A DNA stretch of 64,000 bases from Squalus acanthias (lineage: Eukaryota), in assembly GCA_030390025.1 (NCBI GenBank), contig CM059432.1:65908001-65972000 (forward strand), in the 5' to 3' direction. The notes under the pieces were generated by a model. It searched no databases. It saw only the letters and a program-made list of their open reading frames with translations, and was not told the DNA's origin. Both the position numbers and the translations under genes were made by a program. Of the stretch, positions 361-41,500 are shown piece after piece (within the stretch, counting starts at the first letter, position 1; the number at the start of each line of letters is the position of its first letter).

Positions 361-2775
361 TAATTCATAATTCTCAACAAATATACATTCCGTTGAGGAA
401 TAAAAACTCCACTGGAAAAGTGGTACAACCATGGCTAAGTAAAGAAGTTAAGGATAGTATTAGATTAAAAGAAGAGGCTTACAATGTTGCCAAAAATGTA
501 AGCCTGAGGATTGTGAGGATTTAAAAATAGCAAAGGATGACCAAGAAATTGATAAAGAGGGAGAAAATAGAATATGAGCGTAAACTAGCAAGAAATATAA
601 AAACAGATTGTAAGAGCTTTTACAAGTATGTAAAAAGGAAGAGATTAACTAAAGTAAACGTGGGTCTCTTACAGAGACAGGAAAATTATAATGGGGAATA
701 AGGAAATGGCAGAGACATTAAACAAATATTTTGTGTCGGTCTTCGCAGTATAAGACACAAAGAACATATCGGAAATTGTGGGGAACCAAGCGACTAATGA
801 GAGTGAGGAATTAAAGTAAGTAGTTTTAGTAAAGAAAAAGTACTGGAGAAATTAATGGGACTAAAAGCCGACAAAGCCCCTGGACCTGATGGCCTACACA
901 CTAGGGTTTTAAAAGAGGTGGCTGCAGAGATAGTGGATGCATTGGTTTTGATCTTCCAGAATTCACTAGATTCTAGAATGGTCCCCGTGGGTTGGAAGTT
1001 AGCAAATGTAACACCGCTGTTCAAGAAAGCAGGGAAATTGCAAACAGAGACCTACAGGCCAGTTAGCTTGACATCTGTAGCAGGAAAATGCTGGAATCTA
1101 TTATTAAAGACGTGGTAACAGGGCACTTGGAAAATCACAATATGATTGGGCAGAGTCAACACGGTTCTGTGAAAGGGAAATCGTGTTTGACAAATCTGTT
1201 AGAGTTTTTTGAGGGTGTAACTAGCAGAATAGATAAGGGGGAATAAGTGGATGTAGCGTATTTGGATTTTCAAACAGCATTCGATAAGGTGCCACACAAG
1301 ATGTTGTGACACAAGATTAGGGCTCATGGTATTGGGGGTAATATATTAGCATGGATGAAGATTAGTTAACAGACAGAATACAGAGAGTAGTGATAAACGG
1401 GCCATTTTCAGGATGGCAGGCTGTAACTAGTGGAGTGCCACAAGGATCAGTGCTTGGGCCTCAGCTGCTTACAATCTATGTCAATGACTTAGATGAGGGA
1501 ACTGCATATAATGTATCCAAGTTTGCTGATGATACAAAGCTAGGAGGGAAAATAAGCTGTAAGGAGGATGTCAAGAGGCTGCAAAGGGATATTGACTGGT
1601 TAAGTGATCGGGCAAGAAGGTGGCAGATGGAGTATAATGTGGGGAAATGTGAAATTATCCACTTTGGTAGGAAGAATAGAAAAGCAGAATATTTTTTAAA
1701 AGGTGAGAGACGAGTAAATGTTGATGTGAAGAGTGTTTTGGGGGTCCTTATACATGAAGTACAGAAAGTTAACATGCAGGTACAGCAAGCAATTAGGAAG
1801 GCAAATGTTTTGTTAGACTTCAATGCAAGGGGGTTGGAGTGTGAAGGAATAGCCATATTCAGAAAAATACACCATCCTATGAACAGAATTCTAGCCTTAT
1901 TAAACATGACAAACTGGGTTTAAAAATCTAAAAGCCTCAACGACACAAAGCTATAAACACCATACAGGCTTTTGAGATAAGATGGGTTGTTGACACTGAA
2001 ACAATAGCCCTATTGAAGCAGCAGGTTGGAGGTTCCAAAAAGTCTGCAGATTGGAAAACAGACAATGATATACCCAGTTAAATTGTTTTAAACCAACACT
2101 TTGTAAACAGGCACATGAAAGAGTACAATGGTATAATGTTAAGGTGTCATAAACCAACACTTCGGGAAACAGAAACACAGAACATTAAAGAAACATATGC
2201 CTTCATAAATATGATATCAAATGAAAGACAGGAGACATAATTCTTAATACAACCAACTGAGGTGGCTAGGGGGACAATGGTGCATCTGGTTGAAGTGTTT
2301 TTAATTTACATGTTGTAAAAAGATACAAACAGAAGACTTTCATAAATATGACATCAATAGATGCACCAAGCAATCACATTGTTTTTGTGTTGAACTTGTA
2401 ACACATAGGAGACATGGGGGGAAAAATTAGGTCGCGCCCCGTTTGGGGCGCAAATATCGTCTGGACGCAAATATTAGCGCCTGGCGCTAATTATCGGCAC
2501 TGACTGGAAACTTCACTTTTACCGCCCCGGGAGGTGAGTGGAGCGCTAAATCAGGCGCTGCACACCTGTCTTAAGGTGCAAAGGCCGAGCAGTGAGGCGC
2601 TAACTCAGCGCGCGAGCGCAGCGCAGCTGCTGCCAGTTAGCGAGGGAACACAGACACACTGGCGCCGGCCACTTCTTAAAGCGGGGGAGGCCAACTTGCT
2701 CCCCAGCCACACCCTGCTCATTGCAGCCTTGAATCTCGGCCTGGAGAGACCTGTGAATCCATTTTGCTGCCAAGG

Positions 2776-4607
2776 ATGGAGAGGGTGAGAGAACGCGCTC
2801 ATCGCTTCACCGAGCGGGCCTTGGATGCTCTGGTTGGCGCGGTGGAGCGCAGAAGATGTATGCTCTTCCCTGAGAGTGGCAGGAGGCCTTTGCCACGCGA
2901 GTTCAGAAGAGTGTGGAGGGAGGTGGCTCAGAGCGTCTCCTCCAGGAGCATTCTGCCCAGGACCCATACTCAATGTCGCAAAAAGTTCAACGACCTCACT
3001 CGGGTCGTCAGGGTGAGTGGCTTTTTCTCAATACCTCTCCATCCCTCCATCTCAACCTCACTCTATGGCCAGAGGGTCTTAAAACCCCAATGCACAACAC
3101 TCATCCAACACCTATGGCCCTTTCATGAAACACACACACTCATTCCACACTTTGCATACAGTAAGGGCTATTCACCTATGGGAGGCACATCAGGCAAGAC
3201 CATGGCTGCATACAGTAAGGGCTATTCACCTATGGGAGGCACATCAGGCAAGACCATGGCTGTATATTTACTCAGATGCTGTCCTTTTTCTTACAGGCCA
3301 AGCTGGCGCATAATCGGAGACAGCAGCAACGGACAGGTGGAGGGCGGCCTCAGCTGCAACCCCTCAGCGATCTTGAGGAGCGCGTCCACAGGATTGTGGC
3401 AAGCCGGGTGATCGGTCCCGTCACCACTGGAGACGCCGACCCCGTTCTGGACAGCAATGGTAAGGTCATCACCTTTTTGTCCTCTGTCCTTCCACTTGTC
3501 CCTCACAACACCAGCCTTTGACACTTTCAATCCAACTTGCTAACTCGCTGCACTTATTCCTCCCTTACTGCCACCCTGTCCTCACGCTAAAGCCACTCTT
3601 GTACCTCCCTGCTTTCAGATGGTGATTCACCAGCTGAGGAGACGGGCCCTGAAGCTGCCACTGGGAGTGAAGCTGCAGCCGAGGAGGAAGAGGAAGCCGG
3701 AGCATCAGTGCCACCCTCTCCCGAGGAAGCCCATGCCCACACTGGGAACACGCCTTCCCTGGAGGGGAGCAGGGGGGAAGGGTCTGATGAGGGTGAAGCT
3801 CCAGGACCCAGCGGGCTGCAGCAACGCCATGGGGGGGGGGGGGGGGGTAGGGAAGAACGGGGGCCTTCTCCCCAGTGGGAGAGTATGCCAGACACTCCTA
3901 CTGCAATGGACGCAGAGGAGGAGCGGCTGATCGCAGAAATGAACACCCAGGCGGTGGGCATGCAAACTGAGCTCATGGGTGCAGTGAGAAGGGTGCCCGA
4001 ATGCATTGAGTCACTGGCAAGGAGTGTGGAGCACTTCGCTGTAGCACAGGCGGATGCCACACTAACGCTTAGTGCTGCAATTCAGTCACTGGCTGCCGTG
4101 ATCCCATCTCTGACTGCTCTCATACAGACTCAGATTGAGGCCACGCGAGCACAGACTGCTGCCATCCTCGATGGTTCGTGCACATGTCCCCGGGGCTGTC
4201 ACCGTGCCGCAGCAGGCCAGCAATCTGTTCTCCAGCAGATTGCTCCGGATGCTGAAGTGCTGCCCCGTGGGAGTGCCAGTGTGTCGGGCGAGCAGGGAGT
4301 TGCTGTCCTCTCTCACGATGACAGCATTCCTGCTGCCAACACTGTCACTTCTCCACTGCACTTGCCACCGCCTGTAGGACAGACTGCTGCCGCCCATGCA
4401 GAGTTGGTGCAGTCTGCAGCCGGGCCCTCCAGGCCCAGAACTGGTCGAGGCCGTCCTTCAGGGGCATCTGCAGTGTCAGGGTCTGACGAGCAGCAGCCTT
4501 CCACCAGCCTTGCTGCAGCCACTGAGGTCCCATTACGGAGGAGCAGTAGGGTTAGAAGGGGGGAAGTGCGCAAGGGAAGGAGATCACCCTCGAAGGGCAA
4601 AAAGTAG
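2776..4607 (+). CDS. Harbinger Myb/SANT (trihelix, NAIF1/MSANTD-like) DNA-binding protein; exons 2776-3012, 3297-3459, 3619-4607; 462 aa
   Basis: Exon 1 RFTERALDALV...VWREVA...RTHTQCRKKFNDL. Donors gtgagt (3013) and gtaagg (3460), acceptors ttacag and tttcag. Phases 0 and 1 join into ORF 3708-4607 with no stop; basic NLS-like C-terminus. Confidence 0.88.
3155..3262 (+). repeat. 54-bp tandem repeat (2 units) in intron 1 of the Myb gene
   Basis: catacagtaagggctattcacctatgggaggcacatcaggcaagaccatggctg x2. Confidence 0.95.
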
Positions 4608-4901
4608 GAGGTGTGACAAAATGCTGGTCATTTTTTTATTAAAGGTCGAGGTTCATGGTCCAACTTTTGTTTAGTGTTTTGGACATTATCTCCAGGTTGT
4701 GAGAACCAGTTATGTTATTGACTGTTTTTTTGTGTTTATTTTTATGAGTTTGTCATGAGGAATTGACACACACAGAGTTTGTAAAATAAATAAGTTTCTG
4801 TATTCAAAATATACATGGTTGGTGGTTGGAATTATTGGTGCCTTGGCCGGCTTAGGGGTTGCGTGCTGGGTTCATTAATGTTGTTAGCAATGGCAGGGGC
4901 C

Positions 4902-6062
4902 CTAGAAGCGGCTTGCTATTAGCCGTTGACGGACGGCCCTTGCAGTTTGACCATTGTGGGCCGCCCTCCCGCCTTGGTGCTGCTGATGATCATCCTCCTC
5001 GTCCTCTTCCTCCTCTTCCTCCTCCTCCTCTGGTGGTGCTCCAAGGCCTGGTGGCATTGGCTGGGTCCTGAGGATTGCCATGTTATGCAACATGCAGCAC
5101 ACGACTACGAAGTTCGATACTCGCTCAGGCGAGTACTGCAGGGCTCCTCCAGAATGGTCGAGACAGCGGAACCGTTGCTTCAGCATGCCGATTGTGCGCT
5201 CAATTATGTTCCTGGTAGCTTGATGGCTCTCATTGTACCGCAGCTCAGCAGGGGTGTTGGGCGTACGGAGCGGTGTCATCAGCCAGGTGCTCAATGCATA
5301 CCCCTTGTCCCCGAGAAGCCAACCAACTGGCTGATGTGGTGCCTCGAAAAGTTCTGCCACAGTAGTCTGGCGCAGGATAAAAGTATCGTGGCAGCTGCCA
5401 GGATAGTGGGCATTGACAGCGAGTATCAGCTGTCTGTGGTCACAGACCAACTGAACATTCAAGGAATGGAACCCCTTTCTGTTCCGGAATTCCTCGGCAT
5501 TCTCATGCAGAGCACGCAAAGCCACATGCGTGCAGTCAATGGCGCACTGCACCATGGGGAAGCCTGCTACCCTCGCAAAGCCCAGAGCACGGTCACGCTG
5601 CTTGTCTGGGGTCATGGGGAAAGAGATGAACTCTCGTCTCCTTTTAAAGAGGGCATTTGTGACCTGCCGGATGCAGCAATGCACCGCGAACTGGGAGATA
5701 TTGGCGAGGTCCCCAGCAGCAGCTTGAAATGAGCCAGTAGCGTAAAAGTTGAGAGCCACTGTGACCTTCACTGCCACCGACAGAGACGTCCTGGACCTCA
5801 GTTGAGGCTGCAGATCTGGCTGCAGCAGGTGGCAGAGCTCAGTGACCACCTCCTTGCTGAATCGCAGCCTTCGCAAACACAGCTCCTCAGACATATGGAT
5901 GTAGGAGAGCTGTTCACGATATACCCTGGGAGGGTAAGCTCTCCTGTACATACGCCTGTTGGCCCTCCTCCGTCTGGCCATCATTGCCACTCTCTCTCTG
6001 CATCTCTGTGTCCTCCGATTCAGCTGGAGCAGGATGACGCCCCCAATCAGTGCAGCCCCCAT
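4902..6062 (-). CDS. Harbinger DDE transposase (HARBI1-like nuclease), 386 aa from the first ATG
   Basis: Uninterrupted ORF with IDCTH, RKGFHSLNVQLVCD, PGSCHD, LLGDKGY, RNIIERTIGMLKQRFRCL, CCMLHN and an acidic tail. Confidence 0.95.
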   Translation of the reverse strand: MGAALIGGVILLQLNRRTQRCRERVAMMARRRRANRRMYRRAYPPRVYREQLSYIHMSEELCLRRLRFSKEVVTELCHLLQPDLQPQLRSRTSLSVAVKVTVALNFYATGSFQAAAGDLANISQFAVHCCIRQVTNALFKRRREFISFPMTPDKQRDRALGFARVAGFPMVQCAIDCTHVALRALHENAEEFRNRKGFHSLNVQLVCDHRQLILAVNAHYPGSCHDTFILRQTTVAELFEAPHQPVGWLLGDKGYALSTWLMTPLRTPNTPAELRYNESHQATRNIIERTIGMLKQRFRCLDHSGGALQYSPERVSNFVVVCCMLHNMAILRTQPMPPGLGAPPEEEEEEEEEDEEDDHQQHQGGRAAHNGQTARAVRQRLIASRF

Positions 6063-8034
6063 ATTCTCTTTGCAAGCAAAGTAATGAAGGACAGCAACTA
6101 AAGTACCAGCGAAGTTAGGATCAGTAGGCAAAACTACCTCACACAGCGTTGAGTCAATGCAGAAGTCTCTCTTTCTCTCTCTCCGAATCTCTCTCTCTCT
6201 CTCAGAACGAGTGGTGCAAAAATGTCGACCACAGAAAAAGACAGGAAGAGGCCCCCTTTAAATAGCGCCCCCCCCAGCCCCACAGCGATTGATAGCGTTC
6301 CAGTCTTCCGGTCGTTGGATGCGCCAGGCGGTAAGGCAGGGGGCGCCACTCAATTTCCGCTCCGGGGCGCCACAAGGGCGTTGCACCATGGAATGACGTC
6401 ACAATCTGCGCGCGCAGGTGGTCGCAGTGGTAAGTTTTAGCGCCGCCGCACAATCTCTAGTTAAGTTCCCGAGCGGCGCAAACATCGCTCCGCCCGGGCG
6501 TTAGCGGCTTTGCGCCCCATTAGCGCCCTCTTAAGGCGCTAACGGGAGGCGCAACCAACTGAATTTTTACCCCATGAAGTCTGCTTACAACCAGCTGAGG
6601 TGACTTAAGAATTGAACAGGAGACCTTCGTAAAAATGACATCAAATGCTGTCACATTGTTTTTATGATATGTTTTGATAAGTTTTGAACACCTAAAGGTA
6701 GAGACATGAGTCTGCAAGCTAACAGCTGAACTGACTGTAAGAATAGCAGGGGTCAACAGAAAGATGACTAGAGATAATTAGCTTACATCAGCAGAAAACG
6801 TCAAAGGATATACCACTGAAAAAAGGGTATAAAATATAGAACTTTCAAATAGGAAGACAGACTCTGCTGGAAGGTGCAAAGCGATTCTTAGATTCAGAGG
6901 CTCTGTAAGCCTATAACTCTTTAAGTCTCGGGTAATCAAATGTATTTTGATTTTGGTGGATATCCTGGAATAAGAATAAGTAAGAAATATAAAAATGTAA
7001 CGACATTAAGATTTGAGAATAAGGATCTCTGAGAATAAGAATTGTAAGCTATTTGTTTTTGGAATTGTTAAAGTTGCGATTGAATCACCAGCTGTAATTA
7101 CATGTCGGTTCTTTAATAAATCTATATATTTTTAGAATTATCTCACATAGTACTTCTGTATCAAACTGGCGAACTCAATCTCTGTACACTCTTTGGTGAG
7201 GAGTTGCAGAATTCTGGGGGAGTTTTCCAGACCCTCATAATATCCGGAAGGTTACAGTCTAGTTAAACTTATTAAAAGTGCTATCTGGAGGACGGTAACA
7301 TCTTCAGGTCGTTCCTTTCCTTTAGGGAGAGATAGTCTGGACCTTTAGACCCAATTAAGCATCTTTAGGATCCGGCTACCTCTAACTTTAGTTGAAGGTG
7401 AACGTCTGGGGAATACGCCTGATCCGGGGTGGCCCGAAAAGGGCTAGGACTAGTAATTATCCCTTCAGGAGTATAAGAGTAAGGAAGTCTTGCTGGAATT
7501 ATATAGAGCTTTGGTGAGACCACACCTGGAGTACTGTGTGCAGTTTTGGTCTCCTTACCAAAGGAAGGATGTATTTGTCTTGGAGGGGGGTGCAACAAAG
7601 GTTCTCTAGATTGATTCCTAGGATGAGAGGATTGTCCTATGAGGAGAGATTGAGTAGCATGGTTCTACATTCTCTGTAGTTTAGAAGAATGAGAGGCGAT
7701 CGCATTGAAACTTTAAAAATCTTAGAGGGCTTGACAGGGTAGAAACTGAGAGGTTGTTTCTCCTGGTTGGACAGACAAGAAGTATGGGTCATAATCTCAG
7801 GATAAGGGGTCGGCCATTTAGGACTGAGATGAGGAAAAATTTCTTTACTCAGACTGTTATGAATCTTTGGAATTCTCTACCCCAGAGGTCTGTGGATGCT
7901 CAGTCGATGACTATATTGAAGACTGAGATCGATAGATTTTTGGGCACTAAGGGAATCAAGGGATATGAGGATAGGGCGGGAAAGAGGAGTTGATGTAAAA
8001 GTTCAACCATGATCTTATTTCTTATGTTCTTATA

Positions 8035-8320: not shown

Positions 8321-10007
8321 GGGCTGAATTTTACCAGCGCTCAGAGTGCGGATTTGGAGGCGGGTTCACTGTCAAAATCGAAATGATTGACAGCGGGTTG
8401 GGAACCTGCTGCGAACCCACCTCCATGTAAGTTTCCAAAGTGTCGGGTCTGCGATTTCAGAACAGACCCGACACCAAGTGGTGGAGGAGGCATTTAAAAT
8501 AGTTAAATGCTTGTTAACTACAATTTTGCCAGCCTTTTTCTATTTTACCAATTTTCTTACGAGGTTCCCGTCACTCGGGGATCACGTCAGGTAAGTAGGT
8601 CGGGTTCTCTATGTCTCCCCATTGCTGTGAATAGTTGACAGCTGCAAAAGTGGTCTGAAAGCTACCATTTCACAGCTGGTCACTTTCCAATGTAAGAAGC
8701 TTGAGCCTTCAGGACTTGGAAGACACTTTTGAGCTGTATGCAGTTTGGAAGTGTTTGGAGTAAACTTCAGCTGCCATCCATTCCAGCAACATCGGTGCCC
8801 TTGAAAAAATCTCACCTTGGTCCTCTGAATCCCTCCACGATCAACCCCAACAGCAACATCACCAGGCACACCAACTTCACCAACAACAATACCAACCTTC
8901 TCTGCAATCACCTGATGCTGCACAGGACACAGGGTATCAGCACCCAACCACATTGCTGCCCAGGAGGCCAGCAATGGCATCACCATGGCCAGATTTACTT
9001 CACTTGATGCTGTACACTCTGGCTGCCATATGATGCGCCAGGTTGACACCACCCCACACCAGCACCATAAAGCATCCCTATAATGTCCAAGCCATTCGTT
9101 TCACACTCATCACAATTGCGGGGTGGGGGAGTCATGTCTCAACATTCATTGGAACTCACTAGGACACTTCTAAAGGTTAGCACAGATCTGTCCAATAAGG
9201 TAAAGTGTTGAAAATATAGATTTCAATGTTTGACAACACATTAACAGAAACTTCACATGAACATTGGCTAAACCACCCAAGTGCCTACCCTTGTGTGTTG
9301 TTAGTTGGTATGATTGGGCAAGGATGAGGGTGAGTGTGAGTGGTGGCTAGTGAGGTGGGGAAGTGAGGTGGAGGTGTAAGGTAAGTTGGTGTGAGTAAGG
9401 ATGTGCAGGAGTAGGGTAGGGAAGGCAGATTGATGGGGATGTGATGAGTGGCACAGCAGGATGAGGTTGAGTGTGGCTTTGCAGTAACGTTTTGTGATCT
9501 ACTGAGATCATTGAAACGTTTGCGCCACTGCAGCCTGGTCCTCCTTATCACATCCCTGCTTGTGTCCTCCTCAGCTATTTGCAGCCAGGCTGCCTTGGTC
9601 TCCTGGGGAGGTCTCTTCTGACCACTGGTAGTGAAGAGAACCTCCCTGCATGCTCTGACTCCCTCCACAAGAACATGGAGGGAGTCATCACTGAATCGAG
9701 GTGCAGCCCTCTGCTTTGTGAGCTCATTTTTGGATTTGAACAAGCTATCTCAGCAATGGTCGTTTCAAATTCAGGAAGTGGAATGAAGTGGGGCCGGGGC
9801 CCTTTAAATAAACTGGCAAGAGAAGCGTCAGCGCTGACATCACCTGACCCGCACTTTCTAATAGGGTCGGGGAACGCGATGGACGGGCTTAACAAGGCCC
9901 ATTAATGTAAAATCCTTTTTATCGGCGGGCTTCAGTAGGCAGCAGGACCGTATCCCGACAACGACCTCTCCCGCCCAGAACCCACCTCGGCTGGCGAAAT
10001 CGCGGTC
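8321..10007 (-). mobile_element. Non-autonomous Harbinger derivative carrying a Myb/SANT exon (~9490-9743)
   Basis: Imperfect TIRs gggctgaattttaccag / ctggcgaaatcgcggtc; ORF 9285-9743 AAPRFSDDSLHVLVEGV...AWLQIA...RKRFNDL. Confidence 0.7.
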
Positions 10008-11283: not shown

Positions 11284-12470
11284 GGGGGAGAAATTCAGGT
11301 ATCGCCCCGTTTGGGGCGCAATTATCGGCCAGACACAAAGTTTAGCGCCTGGCGCTAATTATCGCCTCCGACTGCAAACTTGGCTTCTATCGCCCCTGGA
11401 GGTGATTGGAGCGCTAAATCAGGCCCTACACACCTCTCTTAAGGCACTAACGCTGAGGAGCGAGGCACTACCTCAGAGCGCTGGCGAAGCTCAGGTGATG
11501 TCAGTTAGCTATGGAACACAGACAGACTGGCGCTGGACAGTTCTTAAAGGGGAGGGTCGATCTTGCTCTCCAGCCACACCCTGCTCATTGCAGCCTTGAA
11601 TCTCGGCCTGGACAGACCTAAATTTGAATTCTGCTGCAAAGAAGAATGGAGAGGCCCAGGGAACGCAATCAGCGCTTCAGCGACCGGGCCTTGGTGGCTC
11701 TGGTTGATGCAGTGGAGCACCGAAGGTCAGTACTCTACCCACAGAGTGGCAGGAGGCCATTGCCACGTGATTATAGAAGAGTGTGGAGGGTGGTGGCTCA
11801 GCACGTCTCCTCCAGGAGCATGGTGCCCAGGACTCACACCCAATGTTGGAAGAAGTTCAACGACATCACTCGGGTGGTCAGGGTGAGTGGCTGCTTTTCA
11901 ATACCTCTACATCCCTCACTCTGTGCCCAGAGGGTTTAAAAACCCCAAATGGCCAACACTCATCCAAGACCTATGCCCATCTCATAAAACACATACGCAC
12001 ATTCCACATCTTGCATACATTAAGGGCTATTCAACTATGGGAGGCACATCAGGCAAGCACATGGCTGCATACATTAAGGGCTATTCAACTATGGGAGGCA
12101 CATCAGGCAAGCACATGGCTGCACATTTACTCAGACGCCGTCCTTTTTCTTGCAGGCCAAGCTATCTCACAACAGGCGCCAGCAGCAACGGACGGGTTGG
12201 CTGAGTTGCAGACCCTCAGCGATTTGGAGGTGCACATGCACAGGATCGTTGCCAGCCAGGTGATAGGTGCCGTGGCCGCATGAGAGGTCGACTCCCTTGG
12301 GGACAGCAATGTTAAGTTCATTAGCTTTCTCTCCTCTCTCATTCCACTTGCCCCTCACAACGCCAGCCTTTTACACTTTCAATCTAACTTACTAAATGTC
12401 TCCAGTCCTTGCTCCCTTACTGCCTCTTAGGGCGCTAACTGGAGGCGCTAATCAATCGAATTTTTCCCCC
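11284..12470 (+). mobile_element. Internally deleted Harbinger related to the full-length family (Myb exons 1-2 only), inserted in a decayed minus-strand CR1 3' end
   Basis: TIRs gggggagaaattc / gaatttttccccc; TSD ata; Myb exon 1 from 11646 (RFSDRALVALV...KKFNDI); two diverged 54-bp intron repeats; degenerate exon 2; no transposase. Confidence 0.92.
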
Positions 12471-16165: not shown

Positions 16166-17852
16166 GGCTCCCAGAGATGTTGGAGAACATACGGTCTGAT
16201 GAAAGGGAGGAAATGAAATAAATCAGTATTTGCAGGGAAATGGTGTTAGGGAAATTGACGGGATTGAAGGCCGATAAATCCCCAGGGCCTGATAATCTAC
16301 ATCCTAGGGTACTTAAGGAAGTGGCCCTAGAAATAGTAGATACATTGCTGATCATCTTCCAACATTCGATGGAATCTGGAACTGTACCCATGGATTGGAG
16401 GGTAGCTAATGTTACCCCACTATTCAAAAAGGGTGGTAGAGAGAAAGCGGGGAATTACAGACCGGTAAGCCTGACATCGGTAGTGGGGAAAATGCTAGAG
16501 TCCATTATAAAGGATGTAATAGCTGAGCACTTGAAAAACAGTGACAGGATCGGACAAAGTCAACATGGATTTACAAAAGGTAAATCGTGCTTGACTAGTC
16601 TACTGGAATTTTTTGAGGATGTAACTGGGAAAATAGATAAGGGAGAACCAGTAGATGTGGTGTATTTGGACTTTCAAAAGGCTTTCGATAAGGTCCCGCA
16701 TAAGAGATTAGCGTGTAAATTTAAGGCACATGGGATTGGGGGCAAGGTATTGACTTGGATAGAGAACTGGTTGGCGGACAGAAAGCAGAGAGTAGGAATT
16801 AATGGGTCTTTTTCCGAGTGGCAAGCAGTGACTAGTGGGGTACCGCAGGGATCGGTCCTTGGACCCCAGCTATTCACAATATACTTTAATGATCTAGATA
16901 AGGGAACTAAATGTAATATCTCCAAGTTTGCAGATGACACAAAGCTGGGTGGGAGTGTGTGCTGCGAGGAGGATACCGAGAAACTCCAGGATGATTTGGA
17001 CAGGTTGGGTGAGTGGGCAGAAGCATGGCAGATGCAATATAACATGGATAAATGCGAGGTTATCCACTTTGGTGTCAAAAACAGAAAGGCAGACTATTAT
17101 CTGAATGGCAATAGATTGGGAGAAGGGGAAGTGCAACGAGACCTGGGTGTCCTTGTGCACCAGTCGCTGAAGGTAAGCATGCAGGTGCAGCAGGCGGTGA
17201 AGAAGGCAAATGGTATGTTGGCCTTCATAGCAAAAGGGTTTGAGTATAGGAACAGGGATGTCCTGCTGCAGTTGTACAGGGCCTTGGTGAGACCACACCT
17301 TGAGTACTGTGTGCAGTTTTGGTCGCCTTATCTGAGGAAGGATGTTCTTGCCATGGAAGGAGTTCAGCGAAGATTCACAAGGCTGATACCTGGGATGGCA
17401 GGAATGACATATGAGGAGAGATTGGGTCGATTGGGCTTATACTCGCTGGAGTATAGAAGAATGAGAGGGGATCTCATCGAAACATATAAAATTCTGACAG
17501 GTCTGGACAAACTAGATGCAGGAAGAATGTTCCCGATGGTCGGAGAGTCCAGAACCAGGGGTCATAATCTAAGGGGTAAGCCATTTAGGACAGAAATGAG
17601 GAAGAATTTCTTCACCCAGAGAGTGGTGAACCTGTGGAATTCTCTACCACAGAAGGTAGTTGAGGCCAAGTCATTAAATATATTCAAGAATGAGTTAGAT
17701 GTATTTCTTAAAGCTAAAGGTATCAAGGGATATGGGGAGAAGGCAGGTACAGGGTACTGAGTTTGGATGATCAGCCATGATCTCATCGAATGGCGGAGCA
17801 GGCTCGAGGGGCCGAATGGCCTACTCCTGCTCCTATCTTCTATGTTTCTATG
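16166..17852 (+). mobile_element. Young 5'-truncated CR1 LINE
   Basis: Open RT frame followed by the gggccgaatggcctactcctgctcct 3' UTR and a ctatgtttctatg tail. Confidence 0.95.
16240..17760 (+). CDS. CR1 ORF2 reverse transcriptase, C-terminal 506 aa (5'-truncated, no endonuclease)
   Basis: [54 protein letters not shown]; no stops. Confidence 0.9.
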   Translation: MVLGKLTGLKADKSPGPDNLHPRVLKEVALEIVDTLLIIFQHSMESGTVPMDWRVANVTPLFKKGGREKAGNYRPVSLTSVVGKMLESIIKDVIAEHLKNSDRIGQSQHGFTKGKSCLTSLLEFFEDVTGKIDKGEPVDVVYLDFQKAFDKVPHKRLACKFKAHGIGGKVLTWIENWLADRKQRVGINGSFSEWQAVTSGVPQGSVLGPQLFTIYFNDLDKGTKCNISKFADDTKLGGSVCCEEDTEKLQDDLDRLGEWAEAWQMQYNMDKCEVIHFGVKNRKADYYLNGNRLGEGEVQRDLGVLVHQSLKVSMQVQQAVKKANGMLAFIAKGFEYRNRDVLLQLYRALVRPHLEYCVQFWSPYLRKDVLAMEGVQRRFTRLIPGMAGMTYEERLGRLGLYSLEYRRMRGDLIETYKILTGLDKLDAGRMFPMVGESRTRGHNLRGKPFRTEMRKNFFTQRVVNLWNSLPQKVVEAKSLNIFKNELDVFLKAKGIKGYGEKAGTGY

Positions 17853-18993: not shown

Positions 18994-19639
18994 TCAGGTA
19001 GATCAGGCAGAGCAATGAAATTAGACAGTTAGAAGGTTTTCTTCCAACATTCAAAGTCAATGTTAAAATTATTTTCTGTAATTCTGAATGTTAAAATATA
19101 GAAGTACAGAATTCTATAGAACAATGGCAAATTTGCGTACTCAAAATATTTTGGAATAAACTCAAAAGCTTACATTCTTCGTTATAATATGATATAGGTG
19201 CAGTGATGTGACCACAGTACTGAAAGAGCTAATACAAACACTAATCAATATCAAAAATGTATCACATGAATATGTCATATCTGTTTTATCTTCTCTACTT
19301 CTGTGATCCAGTTAGCTGTTCTTTGGCAGGAACCCATTATAAACAAGCTTTCAACCTTAACCGGGGTATGTTGTAAAAATATTTCTCATAAGTAAAATAA
19401 ATAAGAAGACTAATCATAAATTAAACATTTCTAATAGTCCAGGAAGTTTGAATGTCAAACAAAAAATCTAAAGAGGTTAATTTCTTAATAAAAAAGGTAC
19501 TACTCATTGAATATACAGATTGTTTGTGACCAGAAGCAAAGAATCCTCCAAGTCAATTCCTGATTTGTTGGAAGTAGCCATGATGCCTTCATCCTCAGGA
19601 ATTCTGTCCTCCCTGAGCTCTTCAAGAAAGATAGTCAAG

Positions 19640-19985
19640 TGATTGAATAGCTTGTATCATGAATAATGAACCCCATTGTAAGTGATAAGAACAGCATCTA
19701 AGGAGTGCTACAAATGCCACTACTGGACAAAGAGAAACATAGGAGGTTTTAAAGAGGCGCTTTAACTGCCTTGGTACATCAGGATGGCCTGTATAGTTGC
19801 AGCTTGCTGTGCCTGCAGAACTTTGCTATTCACAAAGGCCTGGACATGGAGATTCCAGGGGTGATGCCCACAACTGCTTTGGAGACAGAGGAACATGAAG
19901 TGGAACATCAGGAGAGCCATCAATCCGAGGAATCCTCACTGACAGCTGCAAGGTGCATCAGTACTCAACTTAGCAATGAAGTTAA
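19640..19985 (+). pseudogene. Ancient Harbinger transposase C-terminal relic
   Basis: Degenerate VLKRRFNCL...VAACC..QNFAIHKG plus acidic tail, with frameshifts. Confidence 0.5.
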
Positions 19986-23060: not shown

Positions 23061-23352
23061 TAAGTGTACCCACCTTTGCTTAAATTAGGTGAGGGGGCTG
23101 CACGCAGGAGGCCATACCCAGCACACAACATGTACAGGCTAAGACTAACCTTCCTGGACCTATCTAAAGAGCAGTGCATCAGCAGTCTCTGGTTCTCCAA
23201 GCAGGCTATCATTGTAAAGGATTATCACATGGTTTATCACATGGTTTAGTATGAGCATGCTCAGTTCACTCTGGCCGAGTAAAGCAATTACATTGACTAG
23301 CAACTCATCGTGTTTCTGTCCTTCATTTGTTCTACCCACATATATTACACTT

Positions 23353-23370: not shown

Positions 23371-24616
23371 CCCAAAGCCTTTTTTAGTGATCATGGAAGG
23401 ACGCAGTGTTCAACATTTGAGTGGACAAGTTTAAGGTGAATTTGTGACACCTAAACTGAATTTCTGCAATGTTTTACTGTTAATGCTCATGCAGAATCAT
23501 CTGTGCTTTGCCTTCGTGTGTGTGTATACACAGCAACATGTTGATTCTCACGGGTACACAGGTGACGTGTTGAGTCTCTGTTCGATGGGATCGGGACAAT
23601 CATGGCCGCGCCTACAGGATTCATCGGAAACCTCGGCGTGTATGACCAAGTTCGCGAACCATTCAGTTCTTACATTGATCGGATGAAGATGTATTTTAAG
23701 GCCAATAACATTATTGAGACCGAAGATGCAGATGAGAATGTTCAATCTCAAAATAAAGTAATTCGTGAACGTAAAAAAGCAATTTTTCTAATGGCGATCG
23801 GGCCAGATGTCTATGGAACATTAACAAACCTATTCCCACCAGGGAAAGCGAAGGATGCATTGTTTGAAGACATTGTCGAGAAACTCGAGGACCATTTTGA
23901 CCCAAAGCCGTTAGAAATAGCAGAGAGCTATAAGTTTGGTACCAGAAACCAAAAACAAAGTGAAACCATCAGTGAGTACATTGTAGCTCTTAAGAACCTG
24001 TCTTTGCATTGTAACTTCGGCACATTTTTGGATCGTGCTTTGCGAGATAAGTTTGTGTGTGGACTGGTGGATGAGCGCACACAGTCCAAATTACTGAACA
24101 CTCTGGGGTAAAAATTCAGTTGGTTGCGCCTCCCGTTAGCGCCTTAAGAGGGCGCTAATGGAGCGCAAAGCCGCTAGCGCCCGGGCGCAGCGATGTTTGC
24201 GCCGCTCGGGAACTTAACTAGACATTGTGCGGCGGCGCTAAACTTTACCGCTGCGACCACCTGCGCGCGCAGATTGTGACGTCATTCCATGGTGCAACGC
24301 CCTTGTGGCGCCCCGGAGCGGAAATTGAGTGGCGCCCCCTGCCTTACCGCCTGGCGCATCCAATGACCGGAAGACTGGAACGCTATCAATCGCTGTGGGG
24401 CTGGGGGGGGGCGCTATTTAAAGGGGGCCTCTTCCTGTCTTTTTCTGTGGTTGACATTTTTGCACCACTCGTTCTGAGAGAGAGAGAGAGATTCGGAGAA
24501 AGAGAAAGAGAGACTTCTGTATTGAGTCAACGCTGTGTGAGGTAGTTTTGCCTACTGATCCTAACTTCGCTGGTACTTTGGTTGCTGTCCTTCATAACTT
24601 TGCTTGCAAAGAGACT

Positions 24617-25777
24617 ATGGGGGCTGCACTGATTGGGGGCGTTGTCCTGCTCCAGCTGAATCGGAGGACACAGAGACGCAGAGAGAGAATGGCAATGATG
24701 GCCAGACGGAGGAGGGCCAACAGGCGTATGTACAGGAGAGCTTACCCTCCCAGGGTATATCGTGAACAGCTCTCCTACATTCATATGTCTGAGGAGCTGT
24801 GTTTGCGAAGGCTGCGATTCAGCAAGGAGGTGGTCACTGAGCTCTGCCACCTGCTGCAGCCAGATCTGCAGCCTCAACTGAGGTCCAGGACGTCTCTGTC
24901 GGTGGCAGTGAAGGTCACAGTGGCTCTCAACTTCTATGCTACTGGCTCATTTCAAGCTGCTGCTGGGGACCTCGCCAATATCTCCCAGTTCGCGGTGCAT
25001 TGCTGCATCCGGCAGGTCACAAATGCCCTCTTTAAAAGGAGACGAGAGTTCATCTCTTTCCCCATGACCCCAGACAAGCAGCGTGACCGCGCTCTGGGCT
25101 TTGCGAGGATAGCGGGCTTCCCCATGGTGCAGTGCGCCATTGACTGCACGCATGTGGCTTTGCGTGCTCCACATGAGAATGCCGAGGAATTCCGGAACAG
25201 AAAGGGGTTCCATTCCTTGAATGTTCAGTTGGTCTGTGACCACAGACAGCTGATACTCGCTGTCAATGCCCACTATCCTGGCAGCTGCCACGATGCTTTC
25301 ATCCTGCGCCAGACTACTGTGGCAGAACTTTTCGAGGCACCGCATCAGCCAGTTGGTTGGCTTCTCGGGGACAAGGGGTATCCATTGAGCACCTGGCTGA
25401 TGACACCGCTCCGTACGCCCAACACCCCTGCTGAGCTGCGGTACAACGAGAGCCATCAAGCTACCAGGAACATCATTGAGCGCACAATTGGCATGCTGAA
25501 GCAACGGTTCCGCTGTCTCGACCATTCTGGAGGAGCCCTGCAGTACTCGCCTGAGCGAGTATCCAACTTCGTAGTTGTGTGCTGCATGTTGCATAACATG
25601 GCAATCGTCAGGACCCAGCCAATGCCACCAGGCCTTGGAGCACCACCAGAGGAGGAGGAGGAAGAGGAGGAAGAGGACGAGGAGGATGATCATCAGCAGC
25701 ACCAAGGCGGGAGGGCGGCCCACAATGGTGAAACTGCAAGGGCCGTCCGTCAACGGCTGATAGCAAGCCGCTTCTAG
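24617..25777 (+). CDS. Harbinger DDE transposase (HARBI1-like), 386 aa
   Basis: IDCTH, PGSCHDA, LLGDKGYP, IIERTIGMLKQRF; 9 amino-acid differences from copy 1 by hand count. Confidence 0.95.
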   Translation: MGAALIGGVVLLQLNRRTQRRRERMAMMARRRRANRRMYRRAYPPRVYREQLSYIHMSEELCLRRLRFSKEVVTELCHLLQPDLQPQLRSRTSLSVAVKVTVALNFYATGSFQAAAGDLANISQFAVHCCIRQVTNALFKRRREFISFPMTPDKQRDRALGFARIAGFPMVQCAIDCTHVALRAPHENAEEFRNRKGFHSLNVQLVCDHRQLILAVNAHYPGSCHDAFILRQTTVAELFEAPHQPVGWLLGDKGYPLSTWLMTPLRTPNTPAELRYNESHQATRNIIERTIGMLKQRFRCLDHSGGALQYSPERVSNFVVVCCMLHNMAIVRTQPMPPGLGAPPEEEEEEEEEDEEDDHQQHQGGRAAHNGETARAVRQRLIASRF

Positions 25778-26089
25778 GGCCCCTGCTGTGGAAATGGCTT
25801 CTGCCATTGCTAACAACATCAATGAACCCAGCACGCAACCCCTAAGCCGGCCAAGGCACCAATGATTCCAAACACCAAACATGTATATTTTGAATACAAA
25901 TACTTATTTATTTTACAAACTCTGTGTGTGTCATTTCCTCATGACAAACTCATAGAAATAAACACAAAAAAACAGTCAATAACATAACTGGTTCTCACAA
26001 CCTGGAGATAATGTCCAAAACACTAGACAAAAGTTGGACCACGAACCTCGGCCTTTAATAAAAAAATGACCAGCATTTTGTCACACCTC

Positions 26090-28017
26090 CTACTTTTTGC
26101 CCTTCGAGGGTGATCTCCTTCCCTTGCGCACTTCCCCCCTTCTAACCCTACTGCTCCTCCGTAATGGGACCTCAGTGGCTGCAGCAAGGCTGGTGGAAGG
26201 CTGCAGATTGTCAGACCCTGACACTGCAGATGCCCCTGAAGGACGGCCTCGACCAGTTCTGGGCCTGGAGGGCCCGGCTGCAGACTGCACCAACTCTGCA
26301 TGGGCGGCAGCAGTCTGTCCTACAGGCGGTGGCAAGTGCAGTGGAGAAGTGACAGTCTTGGCAGCAGGATTGCTGTCATTGTGAGAGAGGACAGCAACTC
26401 CCTGCTCGCCCGACACACTGGCACTCCCACGGGGCAGCACTTCAGCATCCGGAGCAATCTGCTGGAGCACAGATTGCTGGCCTGCTGCGGCGCGGTGAGA
26501 GCCCCGGGGACATGTGAACGAACCATCGAGGTTGGCAGCAGTCAGTGCTCGCGTGGCCTCAATCTGAGTCTGCATGAGAGTAGTCAGAGATGGGATCACG
26601 GCAGTCAGTGACTGAATTGCAGCACTAAGCTTTAGTGTGGCATCCGCCTGTGCTACAGCGAAGTGCTCCACACTCCTTGCCAGTGACTCAATGCATTCGG
26701 GCACCCTTCCCACTGCACCCATGAGCTCAGTGTGCATGCCCACCACCTGGGTGTTCATTTCTGCGATCAGCCACTCCTCCTCTGCGTCCATTGCAGTAGG
26801 AGTCGCTGGCATACTCTCCCTCTGGGGAGAAGGCCCCCGTTCTTCCCTACCCCCATGGCATTGCTGCAGCCCGCTGGGTCCTGGAGCTTCACCCTCATCA
26901 GACCCTTCCCCCCTGCTCCCCTCCAGGGAAGGCGTGTTCCCAGTGTGGGCATGGGCTTCCTTGGGAGAGGGTGGCACTGATGCTCCGGCTTCCTCTTCCT
27001 CCTCGGCTGCAGCTTCACTCCCACTGGCAGCTTCAGGGCCCGTCTCCTCAGCTGGTGAATCACCATCTGAAAGCAGGGAGGTACAAAAGTGGCTTTAGCG
27101 TGAGGACAGGGTGGCAGTAAGGGAGGAATAAGTGCAGCGAGTTAGCAAGTTGGATTGAAAGTGTCAAAGGCTGGTGTTGTGAGGGACAAGTGGAAGGACA
27201 GAGGACAAAAAGGTGATGACCTTACCATTGCTGTCCAGAACGGGGTCGGCGTCTCCAGTGGCGACGGGACCGATCACCCGGCTTGCCACAATCCTGTGGA
27301 CGCACTCCTCAAGATCGCTGAGGGGTTGCAGCTGAGGCCGCCCTCCACCTGTCCGTTGCTGCTGTCTCCTATTATGCGCCAGCTTGGCCTGCAAGTAAAA
27401 GGACAGCATCTGAGTAAATATACAGCCATGGTCTTGCCTGATGTGCCTCCCATAGGTGAATAGCCCTTACTGTATGCAGCCATGGTCTTGCCTGATGTGC
27501 CTCCCATAGGTGAATAGCCCTTACTGTATGCAGCCATGGTCTTGCCTGATGTGCCTCCCATAGGTGAATAGCCCTTACTGTATACAGCCATGGTCTTGCC
27601 TGATGTGCCTCCCATAGGTGAATAGCCCTTACTGTATGCAAAGTGTGGAATGTGTGTGTGTGTTTCATGAAAGGGCCATAGGTGTTGGATGAGTGTTGTG
27701 CATTGGGGTTTTAAGACCCTCTGGCCATAGAGTGAGGTTGAGATGGAGGGATGGAGAGGTATTGAGAAAAAGCCACTCACCCTGACGACCCGAGTGAGGT
27801 CGTTGAACTTTTTGCGGCATTGAACATGGGTCCTGGGCACCATGCTCCTGGAGGAGACGCTCTGAGCCACCTCCCTCCACACTCTTCTGTACTCGCGTGG
27901 CAAAGGCCTCCTGCCACTCTCAGGGAAGAGTATACATCTTCTGCGCTCCACCGCGCCAACCAGAGCATCCAAGGCCCGCTCGGTGAAGCGCTGAGCTCGT
28001 TCTCTCACCCTCTCCAT
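26090..28017 (-). CDS. Harbinger Myb/SANT protein; exons 28017-27781, 27388-27226, 27066-26090; 458 aa
   Basis: Exons 1 and 2 have the same lengths as in copy 1 (237, 163 nt), GT-AG sites conserved, spliced frame open. Confidence 0.88.
27423..27639 (-). repeat. 54-bp tandem repeat (4 units) in Myb intron 1
   Basis: Reverse complement of the 3155 unit, four times. Confidence 0.95.
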
Positions 28018-28854
28018 CCTTGGCTGGAAAATGGATTCACAGGTCTCTCCAGGCCGAGATTCAAGGCTGCAATGAGCAGGGTGTGGCTGGGGAGCAAGTT
28101 GGCCCCCCCACTTTAAGAAGTGGCCGGCGCCAGTGTGTCTGTGTTCCCTCGCTAACTGGCAGCACCTGCGCTGCGCTCGCGCGCTGAGTTAGCGCCTCAC
28201 TGCTCGGCCTTTGCACCTTAAGACAGGTGTGCAGCGCCTGATTTAGCGCTCCACTCACCTCCCGGGGCGGTAAAAGTGAAGTTTCCAGTCAGTGGCGATA
28301 ATTAGCGCCAGGCGCTAATCTTTGCGTCCAGACGATATTTGCGCCCCAAACGGGGCGCGACCTAATTTTTCCCCCTCTGAACCTAACATTTGATGTAGCA
28401 TGCAAAATTGCGCTATCTATGCAGATGGCGTCTAAGAATGCTCGGGAGCTCCGTCCAACTCAAGTGACTAGTGCAGCTGAGGTATACAGTCACAAAGCCA
28501 CCGCCAAACCTAAAGTTGTAAGACCAAGTCAAAAGCATGTTGTTGAGAGCAGTTCAGTGAATTGTTATCACTGCAATGGAAATCACTCACCACAGTTCTG
28601 CCAATACAGAAATGCAAAGTGTTTTCATGGCCAGAAGCAAGGCCATATTTCAACAGCTTGCAGAGCTAGATCTAAAGCAGGAAGTAGTGGCAATGCAAAG
28701 CAGTGACAACAAAGGGAGGAATTCACAATATTGAAGTGAACACACCTGATGTTGAAGAATTAGGCATCTACAGCATCTATGCCACTAGCGGCAACACCAG
28801 CAGTCGTGAGAAGACTTCCATACAAAACCTCTGATCAACGACCAATATATTGAT

Positions 28855-31226
28855 ATGTGTATCGACACAGCGGCGGACTGTTCTATCATGAGTAAGGACA
28901 CATATGAGAGTAAGTTTAATCAAATACCACTTACAAAGAGTACCGTAGAGTTAAAAACCTACTCCGGAGAAATGCTAGAGACATGTGAACAAATGGAATG
29001 TAGAGTTCAACACAATGGCCAGTCAGTAAATCTGCCTATTATTGTAGCGAGCTACAACAACAGGCCAACCCTCATGAAAGAAAGAAAGAAAGACTTGCAT
29101 TTATATAGCGCCTTTCACGATGACCAGACGTCTCAAAGCGCTTTACAGCCAATTAAGTACTTTTGAAATGGAGTCACTGTTGTAGTGTGGGAAACGCAGC
29201 AGCCAATTTGCACACAGCAAACTCCCACAAACAGCAATGTGATAATCTGTTTTTTGTTATGTTGGTTGAGGGATAAATATTGGCCAGGACACCGGGGATA
29301 ACTCCCCTGCTCTTCTTTGAAATAGTGCCATGGGATCTTTTACATCCACCTGAGAGAGCAGATGGGACCTCAGTTTAACGTCTCATCCGAAAGACGGCAC
29401 CTCCAACAGTGCAGCACTCCCTCAGTACTGCACTGGAGTGTCATGGGCAAAGACTGGTGAGAAAGTCAAAACTAGACTGGAAAACCATCTTCAGTGTAGA
29501 TGCTTCAAAGAAATGACTCGACACAATGCTGAACAAGTATGAAAGCATGTTCACAGACAGTTATGAGGACATCACTGGGTATGATACGCATATCCGCATT
29601 AAGTCCAATGCGAAGCCTGTCTATTGTAAGGCAAGGCCAGTCCCCTATGCGTTGAAAAGTCAGGTGGAGGAAGAGCTAGCGAAGCTCAGAGAGAACGGAG
29701 TGTGAGTAAAAACTGACAAAAGTGAATGGGCTTCCCCGATTGTGGTAGTGTCCAAAGCAGAAAAAACTGTACGCTTGTGCGGTGACTACAAAGTTACTAT
29801 CAACCAAACGGTTGACGATGAGCAGTACCCGTTACCTACATCACAAGATTTGTATGCAGCACTCTCTGGGTCAAAGGTTTTCTCCAAGCTTGACCTGTCA
29901 CACGCTTATGCTCAGCTGAATGTTGACAAAGAGAGTCAACAGTATCTCACTGTCAACACACACAAGGGACTGTACTCATACACCAAGCTGTCGTATGGTG
30001 TAAAGTCCTCCCCCAAAATCTTCCAGGCTACGATGGATAAGATCTTGCAAGGAATTCCAAATTGCTTATGCAATCAAGAAGATGTGCTGATCGCAACAAG
30101 CAGTGAGGAAGAAAATCTGGAAGTGTTAAATTTAGTGCTTCAAAGGTTGGATTCCCACAATGTCAAATTGAAAAGGAGCAAATGTGCTTTTGTGCAGCCC
30201 GAGGTTGTGTACCTTGGTCTGAAAGTTGATGCAAATGGCTTGCAACCAGTTAAGGAAAAGGTTGATACTGTCATCAATGCTCCAAAGCCACAGAACATGT
30301 CTGAGTTAAGATCTTTCCTTAGAATGGTCCAGTACTACGCACGTTTCTTACCTGAGTTAGCAACCAGGTTAGCTCCATTGCACGAGCTCCTCAAGAAGGA
30401 TGTCCAGTGGAAGTGGACAAAAGTGCAACAGGAAGCTTGCGACGCTCGTAAGAGAAGTCTCTCTAGCGATGCTCTACTTGTGCACTACGACACAGAGCGT
30501 GAGCTTAAGTTAGCATGTGATGCTTCCAGCTACGATGTGGGAGCTGTCATGGATGATGGCCAAGAGAAACCAATCGCGTTTGCATCGCGAACCCTCACAA
30601 AGAGCGAAAGAAACTACGCTCAAATTGAAAAGGAGGCACTCACCATAGTGTTTGGAATCAAGAAATTTCAACAGTTCCTGATCGGCAGAAAGTTCACCCT
30701 GATAACCCATTACAAACCATTCCTAGTAAAATCTGCCATCCCTGCAATGGCTGCATCAAGAATGCAACGTTGGGCAGTGTTGTCACAATATGACTACACG
30801 ATTGAATATCGCACTTCAAAGCAAAACGCAATCGCAGATGCCTTGTCCAGGTTGCCACATGAGGACTCATGTGTTGGGAGTGAAGGTGCTATTTTCACGC
30901 TAGGTGCCGTTGACAAAGACTTTCCCGTGAATGCAACTGAGATTGCAGATGAGACTCAAAAGGACTCAGTACTGAAAAGAGTGTATGAAAACACCTTGAA
31001 TGGATGGATTGATCAGTGTCTGGACACAGAGTTGAAACCATTCCATAACCGTCGTACTGAATTGTCTTGTGAGCAAGGTTGTATCAAGTGGGGAAACAGA
31101 GTGGTGGTACCTACTTCTTTGAGTTCGGAACCAAAAAAAACCAGCCTGCAAATTGGTTCAACGCCAAAACCTTTTGTAAAGAGATCAGGAAGGCTCCACA
31201 AACCTGTTATTAAACTGGATATTTAG
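28855..31226 (+). pseudogene. pol: Gypsy pol (protease, RT, RNase H; integrase missing), disrupted
   Basis: IDTAAD protease; RLCGDYK, FSKLDLSHAY; YxDD decayed to NQED; LACDAS, YAQIEKEAL, NAIADALSR; stops and a SINE insertion. Confidence 0.9.
29077..29440 (-). mobile_element. Deu-domain SINE (SacSINE1-like) inserted in the Gypsy protease
   Basis: (gaaa)n tail, Deu core, TSD tcatg; removal restores PTLMGKDW. Confidence 0.85.
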
Positions 31227-36790: not shown

Positions 36791-37202
36791 TCAATTACAT
36801 TCTGACCTTACAGACTCAGAGGCTGCTAATAAACCATTTTGCCGACCAAAATCCATAAAGGTGATGGTTTTAATGTCAAACATCATACTTGCCTTCCATT
36901 CTTTTATCACCCAGTTGATCAACCTTTAATGCTTTTCTTTAAAGAAGGTTTCCTAACTCTACTACTCCTATGAAGTGTTCACTAAGTGGCCTGAGCAGAG
37001 CTGGTGGAAGGCTGCTGTTCCTCATGTGGGGACTCTTGAGATGCTTGTGGCCGGTGACTTCCGGGTGCTCGAGCCCCTGAGGGCCCGGCCACAGGCTGTT
37101 GCAGCTCAGCTCCTGCTGGGGCAGTCTAGCCAAATTGACTTGCTGGCACCGTGGTGGTTACTGGTGAAGGGGAGAAGTGAATGTGCAGACGTGCTGAGAT
37201 AC

Positions 37203-41202: not shown

Positions 41203-41289
41203 CAGGAAGGTTGGGTGAGAGGTGTGTTGGGAGGTCTTGTTGAGAAAGGTGGAGAGCTGCAGAGGTGTACTGACCCTTGCTGCTCTTGT

Positions 41290-41500
41290 GACATCATTGA
41301 ACCTCTTTCTACATTGAACCCAAGTCCTGGGGTGATGCTGGTGGTATTGACCCTCTCAGCCACCACTGTCGAGGCCTGCTTGACAGTGGTTGTGGGGATG
41401 TTGCTGCGGGCACTGGGGAAGATAACCTCACTCCTGGCCCTCACTTACTCCACTACGATTTCCAGGGATGGATCAGGTAAGCGAGGGGCAGCCCTCTAAC
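41290..41500 (-). pseudogene. Decayed Harbinger Myb/SANT exon
   Basis: AAPRLPDPSLEIVVE*VRARSEVIFP...KQASTVVAERV. Confidence 0.6.

Follow-up and report, generated by a model that had tools for sequence, protein, structure and literature searches.

The stretch analysed here (the window) comprises 64,000 nucleotides of the Squalus acanthias genome (assembly GCA_030390025.1, contig CM059432.1, positions 65,908,001 to 65,972,000 of the forward strand). Near its left end lies copy 1 of a Harbinger transposon with two convergent genes, a spliced Myb/SANT gene and a transposase gene, enclosed by terminal inverted repeats (TIRs) and target-site duplications (TSDs). In window coordinates its features are:

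2414..2416, unstranded: left TSD ATG, right counterpart at 6574-6576
2417..6573, + strand: copy 1, full-length autonomous-type Harbinger element of 4,157 bp, subfamily B (youngest)
2417..2432, + strand: left TIR, imperfect, 13/16 bases agreeing with the right end
2434..2666, unstranded: left subterminal region with recurring GGCGCTAA-like motifs, the 8-mer three times within the first 360 nt
2534..2541, + strand: upstream splice donor, GAG/GTGAGTG in 104/113 copies
2776..3012, + strand: Myb exon 1, SANT/trihelix domain, 79 codons, Pfam Myb_DNA-bind_5 (PF13873), E 3.7e-8
3013..3296, + strand: intron 1, GT..AG, 284 nt, carrying a 54-bp tandem unit in variable number
3297..3459, + strand: Myb exon 2, AKLAHNRR..TGGG..LEERV block, open frame with homology to the shark gene model P0010
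3460..3618, + strand: intron 2, GT..AG, 159 nt (the same length in 109/113 copies)
3619..4607, + strand: Myb exon 3, acidic linker, Ala/Leu/Gln-rich probable helical region and basic tail, stop at 4605-4607
4608..4901, unstranded: spacer between the convergent genes, polyadenylation-like signals at 4638 and 4785 (+) and at 4635 and 4735 (-)
4902..6062, - strand: DDE transposase, single exon, 386 aa, Met at 6062, stop at 4902, D176, D252 and E288 present
6265..6552, unstranded: right subterminal region, the GGCGCTAA-like motif again, 8-mer three times within the last 330 nt
6558..6573, - strand: right TIR, counterpart of the left end

The sequence supports a reading of copy 1 as a complete autonomous two-gene PIF/Harbinger DNA transposon with a spliced Myb partner: it has a DDE_Tnp_4-type transposase (Pfam PF13359, E 3.5e-39) with its triad, a separate Myb/SANT gene, TIRs, a 3-bp TSD and an extended target preference. 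The transposase motifs IDCTH, GDKGY and IERT, noticed in the initial annotation, are present in the translation, and the TIRs and TSDs that it gave to two copies are borne out in both. The TIRs of copy 1 begin with GGGG and, at 16 bp, are shorter than the 25-50 bp given for PIF/Harbinger elements in PMC9179366. The subterminal GGCGCTAA-like repeats are likely candidates for Myb-protein binding sites. Among named proteins, those nearest to the transposase all come from sharks or rays; they carry automatic 'putative nuclease HARBI1' labels, and the top one is 66% identical. A sequence search among solved structures returned none related to the transposase (best E 0.034).

The window holds a second full-length copy and a partial relative:

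24105..28375, - strand: copy 2, full-length, inverted, subfamily A (main), TSD TCT (+ strand; AGA on -) at 24102-24104 and 28376-28378
28017-27781, 27388-27226 and 27066-26090, - strand: copy 2 Myb exons, spliced frame of 458 aa
24617-25777, + strand: copy 2 transposase, carrying V25M, G173C and V293M
11284..12470, + strand: copy 3, older non-autonomous relative (~81% identity), both ends, an ATA TSD and Myb exons 1-2 kept

Over 4,144 aligned bases copies 1 and 2 show 98 mismatches (2.4%), besides five indels. Copy 3 is without Myb exon 3 and without a transposase. To call the element present twice, as had been done, is an understatement not only for the window. A transposase-internal 28-mer has 2,969 exact genome matches (reversed control 0) and a first-look genome search gave 3,356 candidates, which puts the number of transposase-bearing copies in the 3.7-Gb genome at about 3,000, and by extrapolation (3,000 x 4.2 kb) the family covers ~0.3% of it. 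The left-end 35-mer has 1,053 exact matches and the right-end 35-mer 7,282 (reversed controls 0). The latter is ~2.5 times commoner than the transposase probe, which implies thousands more derivatives or sister families with the same end.

A set of 80 loci with the left-end match, chosen by order of position, comprised 64 elements of 3.5-4.9 kb, nine derivatives of ~743 bp, three other short elements and four loci without a right end in range. The ~743-bp derivatives share breakpoints, joining ~280 bp of the left end to 460 bp of the right end, and are 96-98% identical. An older short family was found as well:

L051, L066, L074, L076, L111, L112, L113, L125, L126: ~743-bp derivatives
L075, L094: ~893-bp non-autonomous family, older

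Two alignments serve below. One holds 84 elements, namely 82 of the 100 fetched loci and the two window copies, with short, end-less and out-of-range ones dropped; the other holds 113 copies, restricted to elements of 3.9-4.5 kb and including 33 of 40 transposase-probed loci.

The three Myb exons of copy 1 splice to a single open frame of 462 aa, as had been proposed, with introns of 284 and 159 nt and the frame continuous. Among copies, intron 1 is mostly 230, 284, 338, 392 or 446 nt long, the 54-bp tandem unit lying at 3153-3266 and 27365-27688 in the window. The second splice junction (3459/3619), one of the two at which the initial annotation wanted RNA evidence, occurs exactly and with GT..AG borders in contigs of all four probable RNA runs (X1, X3, X2 and X5); these come from two studies and two organisms, each either distinct from the host or not known to be identical with it, and their assignment to RNA is a guess. 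In three further runs, of unknown kind, intron 2 is retained and the junction is absent, and contigs of the probable RNA runs also span introns and element ends. Intron-less DNA copies were considered as the source of the junction and rejected, since intron 2 is missing from 0/113 aligned genomic copies and the runs of unknown kind are unspliced only, a rejection that covers copies from the source genome only. The junction 2 contigs are good but not final evidence for splicing of intron 2, and the Myb gene is therefore likely transcribed in related organisms.

The first junction (3012/3297) fared differently. It was seen in 0/8 sequencing runs examined (the junction counts leave out runs X4, X6-X10 and X13-X15), and it is homology that backs the gene model here: P0010 aligns ungapped across exons 1 and 2 (45% over residues 2-113) and scores 97 bits against the spliced exons versus 64 bits against the unspliced read-through. 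The upstream donor at 2534 is joined to exon 2 in one X1 contig (joint 2531-3295, depth 7), by which the SANT exon would be skipped, and in contigs of organism A (X1 and X2, same letters) the end of exon 2 (3459) is fused to foreign sequence. Together these joints hint at transcripts of that organism, chimeric or lacking the SANT exon, that make use of the element's splice sites. The only poly(A) raw-read run, X17 (10 million records, 12% of the run), yielded 42 reads, all of them simple-repeat stretches with partial fit; the contigs for their part cannot distinguish transposase transcription. As for exon 3, a Pfam search gave no family, no homolog was found at E<=0.001 and all Atlas leads were below 0.9, so that no tool confirmed the coiled coil that had been expected there.

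Both window copies had been described as apparently competent, which their transposases do not bear out. Measured against its own subfamily consensus, copy 1 has seven transposase and nine Myb changes and copy 2 three and twelve. Copy 1 carries G173C, P185L, A227T, V293M, V10I and R21C. G173C, a feature absent from the initial annotation, lies three residues ahead of the catalytic D176 and occurs in both window copies, which are the only two of 84 to have it; position 173 is Gly in 29/35 homologs and Cys in 0/35. P185L and A227T are private to copy 1, at positions where 28/35 homologs have Pro and 29/35 have Ala or Ser. The residues that had been contrasted between the copies (ALH, HDT and GYA in copy 1, APH, HDA and GYP in copy 2) are as claimed, but GYA is not damage to copy 1, because P256A is an allele fixed in subfamily B. 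Judged by these substitutions, copies 1 and 2 are likely impaired relics, their frames open since too few mutations have yet accumulated to break them, and they are probably less competent than other copies of the family.

Copies 1 and 2, neighbours of different subfamilies, alone (2/84) have in common the non-CpG change behind G173C (5546 and the matching base). Flanking subfamily markers limit any conversion tract to ~60 nt, and sharing by chance is possible, such doubletons occurring in 31 of the 1,235 pairs drawn from different subfamilies.

The copies form a ladder that runs from old types (90-93% identity to copy 1) through the main subfamily A and intermediates to the derived subfamily B, which is 1.4% from A and contains copy 1, copy 2 belonging to A. 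Terminal branches shorten toward B (Spearman -0.41, p=1e-5; 18 B copies had been picked because they resemble copy 1). Among transposase changes that are shared, pN/pS is 0.31 (11 and 11), while singletons reach 0.76 in the transposase and 0.96 in the Myb gene, with eight stops in each; CpG transitions account for 626 of the 2,001 rare changes. The low ratio among shared changes against near-neutral singletons with stops means that there is purifying selection on the transposase during replication and near-neutral decay following insertion. Among common variants, 53% of site pairs violate the four-gamete test, where six clonal simulations give 16-33%; the violations depend little on distance, which suggests short-tract exchange between copies, by gene conversion or template switching. 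A signature of an error-prone polymerase on the replicating lineage was also considered and dropped as weak: non-CpG transitions set against transversions give p=0.04, and private changes too are enriched in doublets (34 versus 8.2 expected).

That the open frames are instead kept by selection for a host function, as in a domesticated HARBI1/NAIF1-like pair, is hardly credible on these data. It is true that each window copy has its two frames open and that the named relatives are labelled 'putative nuclease HARBI1', but this database label is automatic, ~3,000 copies have TIRs and TSDs, singleton pN/pS is near neutral with stops present, and the window copies are 3-7 transposase and 9-12 Myb changes away from consensus. 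HARBI1 and NAIF1/MSANTD1-4 do derive from such transposase and Myb-like genes (PMC9392472); genes of the HARBI1/NAIF1 type are single-copy and without TIRs or TSDs according to the same source, whereas the shark family is multi-copy and mobile and decays neutrally.

A perfect 3-bp TSD flanks 74 of 94 elements with both ends. All three bases are A/T in 53 of these 74, while CAG occurs once and CTG not at all. The column consensus is T-W-A (0.56/0.90/0.56), although exact TAA or TTA makes up only 15/74 and TAT, AAA and ATA are equally common. Around the TSD, 61 distinct sites (L056 and L107 omitted) give a palindromic 15-bp profile, approximately A-R-A-C-A-C-[T-W-A]-G-T-G-T-Y-T, with A/T at -5/+5 in 88%. 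Han et al. 2015 assign a TWA TSD to the PIF/Harbinger group and a CWG TSD to the NuwaI group (PMC4482050). The TSD of our family is nearer to TWA than to the CWG of NuwaI, which it does not share, while the GGG start, the animal host and the length of ~4.2 kb agree with NuwaI. The target of zebrafish Harbinger3_DR, AAACACCWGGTCTTT (PMC3016246), likewise has a 3-bp TSD in a 15-bp palindrome, its flanks, AAACAC..GTCTTT, being much like the ARACAC..GTGTYT of the shark; the Harbinger3_DR TSD is CWG as described there, that of the shark family mostly all A/T. From the palindromic preference it follows that abundant repeats spelling the motif receive insertions repeatedly, and one repeat-borne site was used six times, in both orientations (L056 left out as a duplicate). 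The 3-bp flanks are mismatched in 20/94 elements versus ~4-5% expected from 0.7% divergence; some of these are off-by-one ends, and others may reflect imprecise repair or inter-copy recombination.

The initial annotation took the family to be recently active and possibly still active. Its copies are indeed similar, the 64 position-ordered ones diverging from consensus by 0.31-1.9% (mean 0.93%), subfamily B copies by 0.53% outside the query region and a set resembling one near-consensus copy, L166, by 0.57%. However, no identical copies at unrelated sites were found among the 113 aligned and 30 selected copies, and the closest independent pair differs by 0.54% among the 113 and by 0.36% among the 30, which were chosen for closeness to L166. 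When two parts of copy 1 and the copies L166, L132 and L033 were compared with the whole genome, none had a twin among the 40 best candidates scored for each; the best non-self scores were 22-42 bits under self, equivalent to ~5-9 differences per 0.6-2.1 kb. The sole near-identical pair among the 113, L055/L056, shares flanks of 9.3 kb (99.9%) and 5.6 kb (99.6%), so a recent local hop is ruled out in favour of segmental duplication. At G000:C1:19912000-19967000 (L201-L204) lies a segmental duplication in tandem, 19 kb or more in length, 99.6-99.9% identical, ~32 kb apart and with mostly indel differences, either genuine or an assembly artefact. Polymorphism was sought through alternative-haplotype contigs, and two flank searches gave only paralogous repeats and no allelic contig.

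Since no two sampled independent copies are identical, the bulk of the spread likely ended long ago. With the epaulette-shark pedigree rate of 7e-10 per base per generation (95% CI 1.4-14.1e-10; PMC10587355), 0.3-0.5% amounts to ~2-8 million generations if the mean and the upper rate are applied, an extrapolation good to an order of magnitude only. Runs X11 and X12, from other organisms, carry most B-diagnostic alleles and also a few that are absent from all 113 copies, so that even the youngest wave is common to other organisms. The last large wave is thus likely old, and with no identical independent insertions, near-neutral decay and the youngest alleles shared with other organisms, we consider the family likely, though not certain, to be dormant or nearly so.

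Several points weigh against this. Both frames, the motif trimers and the splice sites are kept in ~20% of full-length copies (14/64; 7/33), by extrapolation ~500-650 copies with both frames open, and the proteins act in trans. L166 (G000:C1, 62.59 Mb) has one singleton and three rare changes in 3,907 sites (counts that omit L056, L147 and L157), though an overdispersed model does expect 0.4 L166-like copies in 110; from the subfamily consensus it differs by one transposase and two Myb residues. The sample is underpowered for identical clusters below ~50 copies, with a power of 0.13-0.17 at 20 copies, the age estimate borrows a mutation rate from another species, and the harm of G173C is inferred from conservation only. 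Intron 2, finally, is spliced in every probable RNA run. The open frames, the splicing, L166 and the low power for small clusters, taken together with a ladder tree that speaks for long persistence and terminal branches that shorten toward its tip, favour a low rate of germline transposition, the open-frame copies supplying both proteins in trans and the few new insertions escaping our sampling. We find this unlikely, though not far-fetched: none of the four copies used as queries, among them the two lowest in private changes, has a twin among its best 40 candidates, no independent pair is closer than 0.36%, the poly(A) run X17 is without real cover, and junction 1, needed for the DNA-binding protein, is missing from all eight runs. 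It is equally doubtful, then, that we are dealing with a natural, unreconstructed vertebrate Harbinger still moving, its copies a recombining population that renews functional alleles by exchange. L166 was also considered as the tip of a very young subfamily and dismissed, because private change outside the query averages 0.57% in the 29 copies nearest to it and the overdispersed model expects 0.4 copies of this kind; L166-like copies matching the consensus in both proteins number 0/30.

Low divergence could also stem from a fairly recent horizontal transfer in repeated waves into the source and other organisms, a reading compatible with present dormancy. Under each of eight organism labels more than half of the sampled 31-mers are present, the nearest annotated protein of a shark or ray is at 66%, the purifying selection seen in shared transposase changes is what one expects at transfer, and Harbinger transfer among fishes and into sea kraits has been published (PMC9179366, 10.1101/2021.06.13.448261). 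Transfer nevertheless seems rather improbable to us, as an unbroken series in the genome leads from relatives at 90-93% by way of A to B, with the 81% relative in addition, the many remoter Harbinger remnants in the window fit long residence, and the organisms that share the family may be close kin.

For the dormant or nearly dormant family that we favour, the past mode of spread may be sketched with steps borrowed from established Harbinger biology. The spliced Myb/SANT protein would bind the subterminal motifs and the transposase and carry the latter into the nucleus, where the DDE transposase would excise the element and reinsert it with a 3-bp staggered cut. The internally deleted ~743-bp derivatives, with their common breakpoints, were mobilised in trans. 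Family growth proceeded by successive subfamilies O (old), A (main) and B (young), under purifying selection on the transposase while replicating and likely with sequence exchange among copies, each copy then decaying nearly neutrally.

The requirement for both proteins in transposition is known for Harbinger3_DR (zebrafish, reconstructed) and rice Ping (PMC2836001). Harbinger3_DR and Harbinger3N_DR (PMC2836001, PMC3016246, PMC8151067) likewise comprise a DDE transposase, a separate Myb-like protein and non-autonomous derivatives; as these sources describe it, Harbinger3_DR was rebuilt from a consensus, while about one fifth of natural copies of the shark family keep both frames. Harbinger-Snek of sea kraits (Laticauda) is, like our family, a natural two-gene vertebrate Harbinger of high copy number, with 269 fully intact copies and reads over both genes; its authors report slowed expansion and possibly continuing transposition, and unlike ours it has a snake host and was horizontally transferred (10.1101/2021.06.13.448261). 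LatiHarb1 and related coelacanth Harbingers are also very abundant in a slowly evolving fish, with expression seen in a transgenic line, but they are of a different lineage and occupy 9.3% of the genome versus ~0.3% here (PMC3787270, PMC9179366). Large Harbinger expansions are known in coelacanth and newt (PMC3787270, PMC5741667), Harbinger expression is reported for teleosts, while one survey detected no Harbinger in elephant shark (PMC9179366), and a natural active animal Harbinger is described from a nematode (PMC13668399).

Closer to the host, shark and ray 'putative nuclease HARBI1' models (P0001-P0120) are transposases 45-66% identical to ours, none of the same family; these and the Myb/SANT-containing shark or ray models P0010 and P0121 are automatic gene models rather than described transposons. 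In the literature outside subscription journals, Repbase, Dfam and supplements we found none that deals specifically with a Harbinger family of sharks or rays, which leaves its absence unproven. The novelty implied by the initial annotation is reduced: natural intact vertebrate Harbingers had already been published with the 269 sea krait copies. For the shark family the best protein match is at 66%. It is a real, well-preserved and apparently unnamed autonomous Harbinger family of a known type.

If dormant, this apparently undescribed family documents large Harbinger expansions in sharks or rays, and it warns that 99% identity and open frames are no proof of recent activity in a slow-mutating vertebrate. 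Its near-consensus natural copies are directly assayable material, and the A/T-centred variant of the Harbinger3_DR target offers a means to map target recognition. Were it still moving, it would be a rare native two-protein vertebrate DNA transposon, one that could serve as a two-component tool in vertebrate cells and that would show a cut-and-paste element lasting within one lineage via successive subfamilies.

Around the three copies, the window contains degenerate remnants of remoter Harbinger families, with Myb-like and transposase fragments of 36-65% amino-acid identity:

9498-9725, 19492-19644, 23106-23210, 33013-33698: degenerate remnants of remoter Harbinger families
36910-37167, 41272-41331, 51147-51497, 57813-57941: further remnants of the same kind

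Copy 2 sits inside the remnant of a Gypsy-type long terminal repeat (LTR) retrotransposon (23566-24104 and 28376-31226), which has a reverse transcriptase (RT)/RNase H frame at 29706-31226, beyond copy 2. The frames flanking copy 2, for neither of which Pfam gave a match, we presume to be gag-like before it and Cys/His-knuckle-like after it. Many reverse-transcriptase fragments of long interspersed elements (LINEs) lie at 807-1923, 16222-17760, 52272-54561, 33955-36325 and 42611-43481, the second of them an open stretch of 512 aa that we take to be CR1-like.

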